Positions 44,150 to 59,366 of a stretch of DNA of 64,000 bases are shown here, piece after piece. The stretch is from an uncultured Acidimicrobiia bacterium (GTDB lineage: Bacteria; Actinomycetota; Acidimicrobiia; Spongiisociales; ZC4RG35), in assembly GCA_963744905.1 (NCBI GenBank), contig CAVUUV010000006.1, positions 129,077-193,076 of the forward strand, read 5' to 3'. The notes under the pieces are model-generated. The model did no database searches and was not told where the DNA came from. It saw nothing but the letters and a program-made list of their open reading frames with translations. A program made the position numbers and the translations under genes. How positions within the stretch are numbered: the first letter of the stretch is position 1; the number at the start of each line of letters is the position of its first letter.

Positions 44150-44194
44150 TGGCGCGCCCGAGAGGACTCGAACCCCTAACCTTCTGATCCGTAG
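44150..44194 (-). repeat. att copy A: direct repeat of tRNA-Arg positions 32-76
   Basis: 45/45 identity with 59290-59334. No tRNA 5' half adjacent. Confidence 0.9.
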
Positions 44195-44294
44195 ATCTCC
44201 AAACGCCGTCCATGTGCGTCCACCGGAGTCGGCTAAGCCCGAAGTCGGTGACCAGTCGGGCCACGGTCGTTCATGCCCGGCCTCAGGAATCCAC

Positions 44295-44321
44295 AGAGAA
44301 TGGCTCCCAACTTGGCTCCCA
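44295..44321. repeat. arm-type tandem motif AGAGAATGGCTCCCAACTTGGCTCCCA
   Basis: About 100 bp inside att copy A. Same motif at 47905-47931. Confidence 0.7.
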
Positions 44322-44390
44322 GATATCCGGGATAGCGACGCGATCTGGCCGTCCGTACGTTGGTCGTCGAGCCATCAAGGAGGCACTCTC

Positions 44391-44852
44391 GTGACAACCA
44401 TCGAAAAGCCACCCATGCCCAAGGCGATGATGCGGATCAGCGGGTCCACCACCTTCCGGAACATCCATCGGTTCCTTCTCCGGGCCAGTGGAGGACGCAT
44501 CGGCAGTCGCATCAACGGCATGGAAACGTTGCTGCTAACCACAACCGGGCGCAAGTCAGGGAGCGAGCGAACGGTCCCACTTCTCTCGCTGCCTGACGGG
44601 GATGCTCGGGTGGTAGTCGCTACGAACAGCGGTGCCGACACCAACCCGGCGTGGTGGCACAACCTCCAGGCCGACCCCAATGCCACGGTCGAAGTCGGCG
44701 GGGAGCGCCACCGCGTCCGCGCCCGATCGGCAACCTCGGAAGAGGCGGCCCGGCTGTGGCCGGTCATCACGGAGACCAACGAGGTCATTGCCTATTACCC
44801 GCAGATCACGGACCGGAGGATGCCGATGGTCTATCTGGAGCCGGTCCGATGA
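44391..44852 (+). CDS. deazaflavin (F420)-dependent nitroreductase family protein (DDN-like)
   Basis: LLLTTTGRKSGSERTVPL ... NPAWWHNLQADP motifs. GTG start with an AAGGAGG RBS. Confidence 0.8.
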   Translation: MTTIEKPPMPKAMMRISGSTTFRNIHRFLLRASGGRIGSRINGMETLLLTTTGRKSGSERTVPLLSLPDGDARVVVATNSGADTNPAWWHNLQADPNATVEVGGERHRVRARSATSEEAARLWPVITETNEVIAYYPQITDRRMPMVYLEPVR

Positions 44853-45340
44853 CTCAGACCGTCGCACTGACAACGGATACTCGATGGGCTGCCTGGACCA
44901 CGGCGGCCGCAGCAGCTGTGGTCTGGCATGGTCTGATCGATCAGCACATCGGTCTCAACGGGCCAACCTCGGAGGAGATGACGATTCACCAGGCGGGCGC
45001 GGGCCTGCTCTTTGCCATGGTGATCGCCTGGTGGATGTGGATGGTGGCTCGAGCTGCGACCGGCGATCAAGGAGCGATCCGATCGATTGTGTGGATAACG
45101 GGACTCCTCGCTGTCGGCCTCACCGGTGTCGTCGCATTCTTCGCCGCTCCCCCGCCCAGCGCAGACTTCCCCTACCAGGACATCTCTCACGCCGCCTCCC
45201 TGTCGTTCGGGGTCACAGCGCTCTGGCGGATGCGATCGACAGTCGGCTGGGGCAGCCCGGGTCGCTACCCACGTCTGACCGTCGGACTATTTGTGGTCTA
45301 CCTGGTCGTCAGCGGCTCGTTGATGGTGTCGAACATGTGA
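44849..45340 (+). CDS. integral membrane protein
   Basis: ATGA overlap with the preceding gene. 163 aa, 4 hydrophobic helices. Confidence 0.55.
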   Translation: MTQTVALTTDTRWAAWTTAAAAAVVWHGLIDQHIGLNGPTSEEMTIHQAGAGLLFAMVIAWWMWMVARAATGDQGAIRSIVWITGLLAVGLTGVVAFFAAPPPSADFPYQDISHAASLSFGVTALWRMRSTVGWGSPGRYPRLTVGLFVVYLVVSGSLMVSNM

Positions 45341-45342
45341 CT

Positions 45343-46405
45343 TCAGCTCAAGAAGAAGCCGTAGGGACCGGGAGGGACATCGGCCTCCCGTCGCGGCTGG
45401 TAGTGAGTGCTGTAGATGGCATCGAGGAGCTCCCCCCGAGTAACCACCCCTACCTTGGCGAACACCGACTTGAGGTGGTCCTGAACCGTATACTCGGAGA
45501 TCTCGAGGGGTGTTGGAGATTGCACGAGTGGTCAAGCCCCGGGCCACCTCTCGCGTCACTTGCGCCTCGCGGGGTGTGAGCCCGTAGGCCGCCATGATGA
45601 CCTCGGCGAGCTCGGCTGGACGGGGCTGCTCGATGATCACTTCGAACTGGTCATCGGCTCCTTTCCGTTGAAAAGCATGAAAGGTCACCGGACCGTCAGA
45701 ACCCACGACGGTTGCCCGGACGATCGATTCGACCTCAAGGTGCGGGATCAAGGACGCCAACGTGGCTCGGAGCTGGTCACGTGTGAGGGTGTCGAGCCAA
45801 CGTTCAGCCGGTTCCGACGTGGCCACGAATTTAAGCCCGGAATCGACGGTGAAGGCGCCTGGGGCCCGGTCTCCCTCCCCAAGTGCCGACACGAGAAACG
45901 CATGGCGGAACATGGCAGCCAGCGCGGGAGCAACCTCAGCGATCGTCTCCTCCGATGCCTGGTCGAACGGATCCCACCATTCCGCCCGGGTCAGGGTGAG
46001 GGCGCCCCACACGCCCGTGCGGTCACGAATGATCACCCTCATCTCATCCCACGCTCCCGCTGGTGCGAGCAGACGCCGAAAGCGTTCCACTGTGTTGGGA
46101 TCGTCCACCTCGGCTCGGAGGCGCGAAGCGATGCGATCACTGTCGATTATCTTCGTGTACGTCAGCGGGTCTTCGTTGGCGAATTCCAGAGCGAATAGCT
46201 CCTTCTCCAGATCTGGTGGCTCGCCGAATGACGAGTAGAGGTCGCAACTGGTGAAGAGGTGTGTGGAGGGGTCGACCGAAGCCCAGGTGGACACGTCGTA
46301 GCCGATGGCGCGCCGGAGCAGCTCGTCGGCGCGATGCCGAAACTGGTGATGGCCGGTCTCCTCCACCGACATAGCTTCGAGGGACCGAAGGAGCGCGCTG
46401 GTCAC
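45343..46405 (-). pseudogene. LuxR-family regulator with a sensor-like N-terminal domain, one frameshift inside the HTH
   Basis: LTPREAQVTREVARGLTTRAISN continues in another frame as LEISEYTVQDHLKSVFAKVGV. Junction at a G/C run near 45507-45512. Confidence 0.75.
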
Positions 46406-46495
46406 GACCTCAACGTAGCGATCTTGGTCACGCCAGCCCTATCCCAGATTCCTGGGAGAGCGTGTCTGTGTCCGAACGCATAGGTTGAAACCCAG

Positions 46496-57713: not shown

Positions 57714-57902
57714 CTACCGAGTCAGCTTCAGCTCCTCGGCAGGAACCAGTCGATCCATGAATTCCTCGATGGCTCGCACCACCAGGTAGTTGACGGAGAG
57801 GTCTCGCTCCTCTGCCGCACGGGCCAGGTCGCTGTGAAGCCGCTCGGGCACGCGGATCGCCGTGGTGACTCGCTTCTCCTTGTGCACCTTTGGTCGTGCC
57901 AT
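57714..57902 (-). CDS. ribbon-helix-helix (Arc/CopG-like) protein
   Basis: KRVTTAIRVPERLHSDLARAAEERDLSVNYLVVRAIEEFM. Confidence 0.7.
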   Translation of the reverse strand: MARPKVHKEKRVTTAIRVPERLHSDLARAAEERDLSVNYLVVRAIEEFMDRLVPAEELKLTR

Positions 57903-58218
57903 GAATTACACGCTAGTAGTTTTCCGCGTGAAACTGCGGATTTCCGTGCGTGCCTACAGCGGGGCAGTTTCTGCTAGCACACCGCTCGCCTAGTGCTCGT
58001 GGTTGCTCACGCTCGCCAGCGGAAATACCGCGAAACTTGACGTTGATGCTCTACGGTGGGACGTGTGAGGCTCTGGCGACCAAGGGCCGGCCAGAGCCTC
58101 ACTCCATACCGGATCGCTCCGGCGTTGGTTGAATCCCTGACGCTAGTCGACGGGAATCGCTGAGGGGCGAGTCGGATGGAGCAACGACTGGCCCTCCGAG
58201 CGAAGGAGGCGGTCACTC

Positions 58219-58398
58219 ATGACCACCCTCCGCCGAGTTCCTCTCGGCACAACCGCCCGGACCGGGGAGAAGTGCCCCGAGTCCGGAATCTGGCGAGTGG
58301 TCGGCTACCCGACCACAGACGCGCCCATCGCCAAGGGCAACACGATGCCGCCTTACAAAGGTAAGGCGGTCACGTGGAAGCTCGTGCAGTACGCATGA
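58219..58398 (+). CDS. small protein (59 aa), YjzC-like pattern
   Basis: Below the cutoff of the ORF track. GAAGGAGG RBS 8 nt upstream. MTTLRRVPLGTTARTGEKCPESGIWRVVGYPTTDAPIAKGNTMPPYKGKAVTWKLVQYA. Confidence 0.5.
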   Translation: MTTLRRVPLGTTARTGEKCPESGIWRVVGYPTTDAPIAKGNTMPPYKGKAVTWKLVQYA

Positions 58399-58511
58399 GG
58401 TGGCATCGGGTGGCGTAGCACCTGTTGCGCCACCCGACAGCCGAGATGCGAGTGCACCTCGCGGGCGTTCGCCTCGAACCGTCGTGATGGCTGGAGCCTG
58501 CTTTGTCTGGG

Positions 58512-59147
58512 TCAGCGATAGACACTCGCGAGAGTGGCGGATTGCCGGCGTAGCTCCCCAAGGCGGGGACCAATGGGGTTGTTCCACTTGCTGATGTTCA
58601 ACGGCGGTGCCAGATGGGGTACCAGCTGGTCCTCAAGCTCGACCGCATCTACAGGGGATGCGGTCTCCAAGTAGGCGAACGTGCCGTGGTCCTCAATCCA
58701 GGTAGTCAACCGACCTTCGCCGTCGTCCCCGAATGTGTAATACCGCGTGCCGTGCTGGGGATCCCTGTCGGGGCGGGGTCGGGGAACCAGGCTGAGGCGC
58801 GTGAGAAGCAGGACTCCTAACGTGCGACGGGGCGTAGAGCGTCCGGAACTACGTCGCCATTCCTCACGGAACCGCTTTTTCAGCCTGCCGGAGCCGGCGG
58901 CAACACCCACGTACGCGACTCCCTCGAATCCAGGGTCGACGTCGAGGTCGACGAAACCCGCAGCATCGATCCATAGGACGTAGACCCCGTTCCTAACCGA
59001 GTCGATGCGTTCGGGCAAGCCAGCCCTCACGCTGAGCAACTCCCGATAGGCGAGGGAAGCGTCCACCGAGCCAACGGTACATTCCGCGCTGCGATGGACC
59101 TGAACGTGACCGGCGCTACGAGAATGGCTCCCGAGAATGGCTCCCAC
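58512..59147 (-). CDS. GIY-YIG-like nuclease family protein
   Basis: GVYVLWI ... AYVGVA ... LKKRFREEW ... ELEDQLVPHLAPPLN. The first codons coincide with the arm repeats, so the true start is probably downstream (for example GTG at 59066). Confidence 0.55.
   Translation of the reverse strand: MGAILGSHSRSAGHVQVHRSAECTVGSVDASLAYRELLSVRAGLPERIDSVRNGVYVLWIDAAGFVDLDVDPGFEGVAYVGVAAGSGRLKKRFREEWRRSSGRSTPRRTLGVLLLTRLSLVPRPRPDRDPQHGTRYYTFGDDGEGRLTTWIEDHGTFAYLETASPVDAVELEDQLVPHLAPPLNISKWNNPIGPRLGELRRQSATLASVYR
59120..59146. repeat. arm-type tandem motif GAGAATGGCTCCCGAGAATGGCTCCCA
   Basis: Perfect tandem 13-mer, about 145-170 bp from the tRNA 3' end. Confidence 0.7.
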
Positions 59148-59260
59148 GGCATGACCGCCAGCCGTCCGACGCGCCGGCTCCCGCCCGAACCCCCGCCTGA
59201 GCAGGGGTTTCCAGCGGACCGAGAAGGACGGGATTCGGAGAAACCCTTGCGGGGCAAGGA

Positions 59261-59285
59261 AAAACCCCGCCTGAGCGGGGCTTTT
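59261..59285 (-). terminator. intrinsic terminator downstream of tRNA-Arg
   Basis: The minus strand reads GCCCCGC-TCAG-GCGGGG followed by TTTTT. Confidence 0.7.
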
Positions 59286-59289
59286 CGAA

Positions 59290-59366
59290 TGGCGCGCCCG
59301 AGAGGACTCGAACCCCTAACCTTCTGATCCGTAGTCAGACGCTCTATCCAATTGAGCTACGGGCGC
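59290..59366 (-). tRNA. tRNA-Arg (anticodon ACG), CCA encoded
   Basis: Hand-folded cloverleaf: acceptor GCGCCCG/CGGGCGC, D stem GCTC/GAGC, anticodon stem TCTGA/TCAGA with loop CTACGGA, T arm AGGGG-TTCGAGT-CCTCT. Confidence 0.9.

Follow-up and report, generated by a model that had tools for sequence, protein, structure and literature searches.

Here we describe a tandem accretion array in a 64,000-nt stretch of contig CAVUUV010000006.1 (hereafter the window), from an uncultured member of the Acidimicrobiia. According to the reading that we favor, with a probability of about 85%, two elements lie in tandem in the 3' half of the tRNA-Arg(ACG) gene through site-specific integration: E1 (47804-59211), an actinomycete integrative and conjugative element (AICE) by its predicted gene content, and E2 (44195-47760), a smaller remnant. 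This reading rests on exact copies of the tRNA 3' half (the cores), the architecture of the arms that flank them, the gene content, an empty site in a related genome and the link of the integrase clade to tRNA-Arg(ACG). An earlier note on this DNA, made from the letters alone, had proposed site-specific integration into the tRNA 3' half in tandem, a proposal now supported by the empty site, by attachment (att) arms common to a family of elements and by colinear AICEs elsewhere.

Core repeats, attachment arms and gene content

The tRNA-Arg(ACG) gene is the one tRNA detected in the window and the sole RNA found there in an Rfam search; its 3' end lies at 59290 of the plus strand. The 43-nt sequence GCGCGCCCGAGAGGACTCGAACCCCTAACCTTCTGATCCGTAG occurs three times on the plus strand with no mismatch, at 44152-44194, 47761-47803 and 59292-59334, and 100 shuffles gave no match. 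The copies at 44150 and 59290 are preceded by the same TG, which extends them to 45 nt including the CCA, and in the copy at 47761 a T replaces the G one base earlier, so that it measures 43 nt only. In canonical tRNA numbering the repeat spans position 32, the first base of the anticodon loop, to A76, as had been claimed for the tRNA at 59290-59366, and the spacings between cores are 3609 and 11531 bp. Core identity stops at CCGTAG (tRNA position 32) both in the window and in the related loci L081, L091 and L098. The non-tRNA junction previously noticed at the partial copies was likewise confirmed: ATCTCCAA directly follows both core2 and core3, and beyond it the stretches 44195-44321 and 47804-47931 are alike at ~75% over ~130 nt.

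A metagenome scan for the integrase clade returned 80 loci. Most of them have open integrase genes of ~400 aa; the core lies just 3' of int in ~60 of the 80, and in ~45 an intact tRNA-Arg(ACG) is found at that place. Arms of two types recur in this family. The P' arms of five independent elements begin at a CCGTAG/ATCTCCA(A/C) junction and continue with several GTCCAC-like repeats and an exact 26-nt site, GAGAATGGCTCCCAACTTGGCTCCCA. The P arms of nine elements have an exact GAGAATGGCTCCCGAGAATGGCTCCCA ~70 nt from the tRNA end, then a terminator-like hairpin that abuts the core. The conserved repeats, built of GAATGGCTCCC units, are predicted to be arm-type binding sites of the integrase. Core2 is flanked on one side by the P arm of E2, with its arm site at 47663-47689 and its hairpin, and on the other by the P' arm of E1. 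The GTCCAC-like repeats stand at ~10-nt spacing between core and arm-type site in every P' arm (44203-44290 and 47812-47900 in the window, 1036-1125 in L081) and are candidate binding sites for the excisionase or an accessory protein. The core/P' junction found no match among viral contigs.

Other members of the family also have more than one core. Several loci have two cores 2-6 kb apart, among which L143 and L131 look tandem. In L081 a pseudogene fragment at ~700-975, which corresponds to the C-terminal part of another tyrosine recombinase and has upstream stops and a changed catalytic Tyr position, abuts the distal att repeat; it is a tandem remnant in another genome. At four loci (L129, L140, L146 and L159) the cores lie 3.0-3.7 kb apart and enclose ~3-kb elements with little besides the clade integrase, which look like mini integrative elements.

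We assign E1 to the pSAM2-type AICEs because of its gene content and its colinearity with L081 and L083. Its genes run in the order cargo, HD-domain protein, NUDIX hydrolase, regulator, FtsK-like Tra, RepSA, Xis, Int, cargo. Pfam matches on E1 comprise two RepSA fragments (PF20199), a weak integrase match, a Dam-type methyltransferase, a helix-turn-helix (HTH) protein and a GIY-YIG domain. Three-frame translation yields a Walker A/B FtsK-like protein, RepSA, Xis and an integrase, all of which except Xis are spread over several frames. The broken open reading frames (ORFs) of the window gave no direct Pfam match for Tra; a tblastn match links this region to a 441-aa protein of L081 annotated PF01580. 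A search with the in-frame C-terminal piece of the integrase led to L081, an Acidimicrobiia metagenome-assembled genome (MAG) at NCBI, in which the order is HD, NUDIX, a 252-aa protein, a 106-aa protein, FtsK_SpoIIIE, RepSA, HTH_17 and integrase, and then tRNA-Arg(ACG), the whole AICE lying between 46-nt tRNA-Arg repeats at a distance of 10,006 bp. Window 50045-56913 (6.9 kb) is colinear with L081 at 83.6% DNA identity and with L083 at 83%, and a further 6.2-kb relative with two cores is represented by L098/L099. The cargo block after int is common to E1 and L083. The 11.5-kb segment that the earlier note called AICE-like is colinear with the AICEs of L081 and L098/L099, which are bounded by the same repeat; its last 78 nt, next to the tRNA, turned out to be native chromosome. 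The low-GC gene pair at 48258-49948 is probably a restriction-modification (R-M) pair, judging from its matches; it is absent from the related elements and unique to E1. As a separate observation, in L083, which is the nearest relative of E1, the tRNA-Arg at 18369-18410 is cut off 4 nt past the core (CCGTAGTCAG, then unrelated DNA), which suggests that its 5' half was disrupted by a further insertion or deletion.

Searches of E2 with Pfam, NCBIfam, PADLOC and tblastn against the family loci gave no integrase, rep or tra signal. E2 nevertheless keeps both types of att arm with their predicted integrase sites, and because of this combination we class it as an internally deleted or replaced relative of an E1-type element, comparable to a cis-mobilisable element (CIME) or to the traB-less remnant of Streptomyces arrays. 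The former description of a 3.6-kb integrated segment therefore holds for its ends, both of which are of the family type, and fails as regards an integrase, which is absent. Within E2, the nitroreductase domain covers aa 88-209 of its ORF, so the true start of that gene is probably further downstream, and the real ribbon-helix-helix (RHH) gene within 47048-47557 is probably ~45 aa long. Features of the array are collected in Table 1.

Table 1. Features of the tRNA-Arg(ACG) array, in window coordinates
Feature	Position	Strand	Description
78-nt block, left	44072-44149		diverged second copy left of core3; ~85% to L165, 88% to 59212-59289
core3	44150-44194		exact 45-nt copy of the tRNA 3' half; far limit of the array
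E2 P' arm	44195-44321	+	starts ATCTCCAA; GTCCAC-like repeats; predicted arm-type site GAGAATGGCTCCCAACTTGGCTCCCA, exact, at 44296-44321
E2 nitroreductase	44214-44852	+	deazaflavin (F420H2)-dependent nitroreductase / quinone reductase family
E2 372-aa protein	45287-46405	-	weak similarity to BagY/FevT LuxR-type regulators
E2 cupin fragment	46749-47006	+	C-terminal half of the domain only
E2 RHH	47048-47557	+	CopG/RelB-like domain at the C-terminal end of the ORF
E2 P arm	47663-47760	+	predicted arm-type site GAGAATGGCTCCCGAAGATCACTCCCA (47663-47689; second half degenerate), then terminator-like hairpin abutting core2; spacing canonical (~70 nt)
core2	47761-47803		exact 43-nt copy of the tRNA 3' half; junction of E2 P arm and E1 P' arm
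E1 P' arm	47804-47931	+	architecture as in E2 P' arm; predicted arm-type site, exact, at 47906-47931
E1 low-GC cargo (57-59%)	48258-49948	+	375-aa protein with weak type II restriction enzyme match; phage-type N6-adenine methyltransferase (49382-49948)
E1 backbone, left part	50140-52413		conserved
HD-domain protein	50140-50724	+	
NUDIX hydrolase	50737-51185	-	Pif position
regulator	51211-51940	-	homologue of the 252-aa HTH protein
106-aa protein	52096-52413	+	conserved
tra	52481-53780	+	FtsK/SpoIIIE-like DNA translocase; Walker A (GAGKS), Walker B (VVVVDE); frame broken by many 1-nt insertions
repSA	53869-55211	+	pSAM2-type replication initiator (PF20199); frame broken in the assembly
xis	55211-55423	+	70-aa HTH_17-type excisionase; frame intact
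int	55739-56957	+	tyrosine recombinase; frame broken
E1 cargo after int	56990-59147	-	230-aa protein (82% to L083); 62-aa RHH-like protein (57714-57902; 92% to L083); GIY-YIG nuclease-domain protein (58512-59147)
E1 P arm	59120-59211	+	predicted arm-type pair GAGAATGGCTCCCGAGAATGGCTCCCA, exact (59120-59146), then terminator-like hairpin t1 ending at 59211
78-nt block, right	59212-59289		includes the tRNA terminator hairpin; 2 mismatches to the L165 empty site
tRNA-Arg(ACG)	59290-59366	-	intact; core1 = 59290-59334 (anticodon loop to CCA); ARAGORN, Rfam

An empty tRNA-Arg locus in a related genome, a check that the earlier note had put forward, was found in L165, a MAG contig (GCA_049579045.1). 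The way to it led through the 6-phosphofructokinase (PFK) gene that adjoins the tRNA on its right side, the relatives of which are in Acidimicrobiia MAGs. A PFK-anchored contig scan returned 80 loci, none with a tRNA-Arg adjoining PFK; the species-level representatives (≤83% aa identity) are too distant for synteny to be kept. A protein search yielded PFKs at 98% and 93% identity, and with exact look-up of the contigs it located the empty site. L165 is 98.2% identical to window 59212-64000 (4.8 kb), with the same genes on the right; both segments are absent from it, and the tRNA-Arg is directly followed by the flank that lies left of 44150 in the window. Reading leftward from the tRNA, L165 has a 78-nt block, 48 nt that correspond to window 44024-44071, an unrelated stretch of about 150 nt and a match to window 40338-40541, and it is without window 40542 to ~43870. 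The two contigs with PFK at 93% (L163 and L164) hold different DNA at the tRNA site.

Formation of the array and the 78-nt block

The array could have been assembled by a lambda-type tyrosine integrase that would bind the arm repeats (GAATGGCTCCC units) and recombine the attP of the element with the tRNA. Because the common segment spans the tRNA from anticodon loop to 3' end, the incoming element would bring a new 3' half and leave the tRNA intact, and a second integration into the regenerated tRNA would displace the older element outwards. The outcome would be three cores in direct repetition, one in the tRNA (core1), one at the junction of the two elements (core2) and one at the distal limit (core3). 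Given Int and Xis, any pair of cores could recombine, releasing E1, E2 or both, and E2 would be mobile solely if the integrase came in trans. The published AICE arrays make it plausible, by analogy, that the segments are excised together or independently. In this scheme we infer the order of events, the position of the crossover and the present-day activity.

A number of findings weigh against so simple a history. The P arm of E1 abuts not the tRNA core but a 78-nt block, and a single simple reciprocal integration is therefore insufficient to account for the two outer joints. Identity to L165 is only 85-90% in the left flank, 44024-44149, as compared to 98% in the right flank, and the empty site is known from one genome, L165. 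Furthermore, the assembly has int, rep and tra out of frame, and with a mixed-consensus backbone (described below) E1 as written may exist in no single cell.

The block at 59212-59289 is native chromosomal flank and not part of the element, because the canonical P arm of E1 ends at 59211 and because the block differs from the L165 empty site at 2 positions; E1 proper thus ends at 59211. A second copy, 83-91% identical to it, lies at 44072-44149, and block plus core form a 123-nt imperfect outer direct repeat with a spacing of 15,140 that brackets the array. The inner limits given earlier for the repeats, 45 and 43 nt, stand; the 78-nt leftward extension of the outer copies had been missed, and the outer repeat is really 123 nt long. 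The block occurs in no other family member. It starts with CAGCGGACCGAGAAGGAC where the family cores start with CAGCACGCCCGGAGGGAC, and 14 of 23 positions match in register (P ~0.002, with an in-register range of 0.002-0.02); an unanchored local alignment of the block with the tRNA half was not significant (P ~0.3). The in-register comparison alone is thus suggestive of a degenerate tRNA half.

These observations bear on the strongest of the alternatives, which we regard as tentative: a pre-formed composite (E2, core2 and E1, possibly with donor flank) would have come out of another locus through recombination of outer sites, a degenerate relic site among them, and have arrived in one event, re-inserting at a relic site 78 nt downstream of the tRNA. 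Arrival as a composite would account for an outer repeat of 123 nt as against an inner one of 43 nt, and for a P arm of E1 that ends where a core should begin, next to a block with a core-like start. Most of the divergence of the left block is found in the tRNA-proximal 50 nt, which would fit a donor origin, whereas the right copy is native; the confinement of the block to this locus within the family fits as well, and joint excision of tandem AICEs is documented (PMC3218068). On the other hand, the likeness of the block to a core is weak and is lost in the unanchored alignment, the integrase would have to use a poor secondary site, the comparison draws on a single genome, and such an arrival does not predict the divergence (90% identity) that is also seen in the 48 nt to the left of the block.

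Somewhat more doubtful still is the specific proposal that an earlier integration left this block behind as a scar, made up of a degenerate displaced tRNA 3' half and a P-arm-type terminator, and that the array moved as a composite via this relic site. That a scar is present and that the array, or E1, recombined at the relic is our best guess, held with low confidence; the diverged left flank stays unaccounted for by it. If the scar proposal were true, the window would be a direct sequence footprint of accretion followed by cis-mobilisation, and would reveal the coexistence of several diverged AICE variants at the hotspot in one natural population of the Acidimicrobiia, a class in which AICEs were once reported to be lacking.

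Mixed consensus in the E1 backbone

As assembled, tra, repSA and int are each interrupted many times, which would be expected if the mobility genes were truly dead, E1 a decaying fossil AICE and the whole array immobile. AICE decay is common (PMC9513070), and the relative L081 likewise has a split rep and a split int. We consider this history of the array unlikely, since the pattern of the interruptions is one that natural decay does not yield, and natural pseudogene decay was rejected as the main explanation of the broken int, rep and tra on the grounds that follow.

In a five-way alignment of the backbone, comprising the window and its relatives, the window has 67 private indels, 49 of them +1 insertions, compared to 4-11 in each relative, and 32 private substitutions, compared to 150-260. 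Its identity to each relative (77-83%) also exceeds that among the relatives themselves (73-79%). In 43 of the 49 +1 insertions the inserted base is the alternative allele that relatives have at the adjacent column, where the null expectation is 12.6 +/- 3.1. Homopolymer-type sequencing error was rejected as a source, only 11 of the 49 inserted bases matching a neighboring base. The int frame is disrupted by two 1-nt deletions and by eleven insertions, of which ten are of 1 nt and one is of 2 nt. After correction of the frame, Int shows 91% identity to the intact 402-aa Int of L083 and is free of stop codons; the catalytic residues R, K, HxxR, H and Y are all in place, and the codons that differ between the two comprise 85 synonymous and 38 non-synonymous changes. 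Even a housekeeping gene is affected in the same manner: PFK (59494-60644), a single 382-aa gene in all relatives, is split into 311 and 71 aa by 1-nt insertions at 60408 and 60420, which is an assembly error.

Alternative alleles inserted next to single-nucleotide polymorphism (SNP) columns point to a consensus made from at least two diverged variants, and from this signature in the letters we conclude that two or more variants of the element have been collapsed into one consensus in the backbone at 50.5-56.9 kb, with SNP alleles written side by side. The cargo that flanks this backbone on either side is clean. It is almost certain that the breaks in the frames of tra, rep and int are technical, and, given that 50.5-56.9 kb does not represent one haplotype, E1 cannot be called dead from this sequence. 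More than one variant of this AICE is probably present in the population, or genome, that was sampled.

The weakest contender, that the tandem order is itself an assembly artefact in which the contig threads variants of different strains or loci via the common core and backbone, could draw on the collapsed backbone, on the strain-mixture insertions even in PFK and on the odd joint between E1 P arm and native block, which could be chimeric, but it is improbable because each core has unique, mutually diverged flanks (~75% between the P' arms) and is thus no duplicated assembly copy, because a 43-45-nt repeat is far below long-read length, because the cargo segments flanking the backbone are clean, and because similar tandem structures occur in independent assemblies.

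Known systems and neighboring sequence

Relatives of pSAM2 of Streptomyces ambofaciens are reportedly catalogued by te Poele in 2008 and by Ghinet in 2011. Like E1, pSAM2-type AICEs measure 10-12 kb, integrate at a tRNA 3' end with a common segment from the anticodon loop to the 3' end, and encode a tyrosine Int with a small Xis, a RepSA (PF20199), a single FtsK/SpoIIIE-like Tra and a NUDIX protein at the Pif position, in the order tra-rep-xis-int. E1 differs from them in its Acidimicrobiia host, in its target, which is tRNA-Arg(ACG) instead of tRNA-Pro, and in the 2.3 kb of cargo between int and attP; furthermore, no recognizable KorSA, Pra or Spd genes were found in E1.

Tandem AICE accretion at tRNA-Arg has already been published, and the Acidimicrobiia host class is a modest extension of it. 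A survey of 2011 found no AICEs in the Acidimicrobidae (PMC3218068). The same study describes tandem AICEs in a tRNA-Arg gene (Sav3708/Sav3728), three direct repeats that run past the tRNA-Arg 3' end in Fean6303 of Frankia, and the tandem AICEs Fean5518/5534 of Frankia, which were shown to excise singly and jointly (PMC3218068). In a Streptomyces population, one to three AICEs and a remnant devoid of traB were found at one tRNA-Arg, an arrangement that was called accretion and for which cis-mobilisation was discussed (PMC9513070). The accretion arrays of Streptomyces (Choufa 2022), of Sav3708/Sav3728 and of Frankia resemble that of the window in that elements and a tra-less remnant are separated by identical direct repeats, which can pass the tRNA 3' end. 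They differ in integrase clade and host class, and the window array has a proximal element that abuts the 78-nt native block instead of the tRNA core.

E2 likewise recalls the CIMEs and the ICESt1/ICESt3 accretion of Streptococcus thermophilus, being att-flanked, without integrase or transfer genes and in tandem with a complete element of the same specificity, although hosts and conjugation machinery are unrelated and we infer the cis-mobilisation of E2. As with the arm-type sites of the lambda, L5 and pSAM2 integrases, the short direct repeats of the window stand in both arms at a fixed distance from the core and are exactly conserved amid drifting arm sequence; unlike those sites, the motif (GAATGGCTCCC) is specific to this clade, and the sites here are predicted. 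The phenomenon itself being established, the array extends pSAM2-type AICEs and their accretion behavior to the Acidimicrobiia, and defines a tRNA-Arg(ACG)-specific integrase clade whose clearly conserved arm-type sites may help to predict att sites or serve as a tool for integration. It also provides a worked example of how the consensus of mixed-strain long reads can make a mobile element resemble a pseudogene-ridden fossil.

The entire region left of the tRNA looks hypervariable. In L163 (905-9782, compared with window 19400-59200), the homologue of window 18.0-19.4 kb lies ~9 kb from the tRNA-Arg, as against ~40 kb in the window; the homologue of window 33145-34956 adjoins PFK in Ornithinimicrobium. 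A third element left of 44150 was considered and rejected, there being no arm motif and no similarity to family loci, and 44024-44149 being chromosomal-type flank according to L165. A diverged 52-nt repeat occurs in four copies at 38458-39268, with 174-411-nt spacing, and encodes Asp/Gly-rich units in a long ORF (38251-39594 on the minus strand or 38635-40032 on the plus strand); the plus-strand ORF, which was the one scanned, had no Pfam match.

An element of ~175 nt that resembles a miniature inverted-repeat transposable element (MITE) is present in two copies, 98% identical, at 5510-5683 and 40549-40719, with 14-nt terminal inverted repeats (CTAGGAGCCTGTTG ... CAACGGGCTCCTAG). Its character as a MITE-like repeat with terminal inverted repeats led us to reject the pair, 35 kb apart, as the boundary of an island. 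The second copy falls in the region that L165 is without, as does a 972-aa ORF at 40829-43747, which is replaced by ~120 nt in L165; this ORF has a DivIVA domain at its N-terminus and a long stretch rich in purines (GC skew +0.12, AT skew +0.3).

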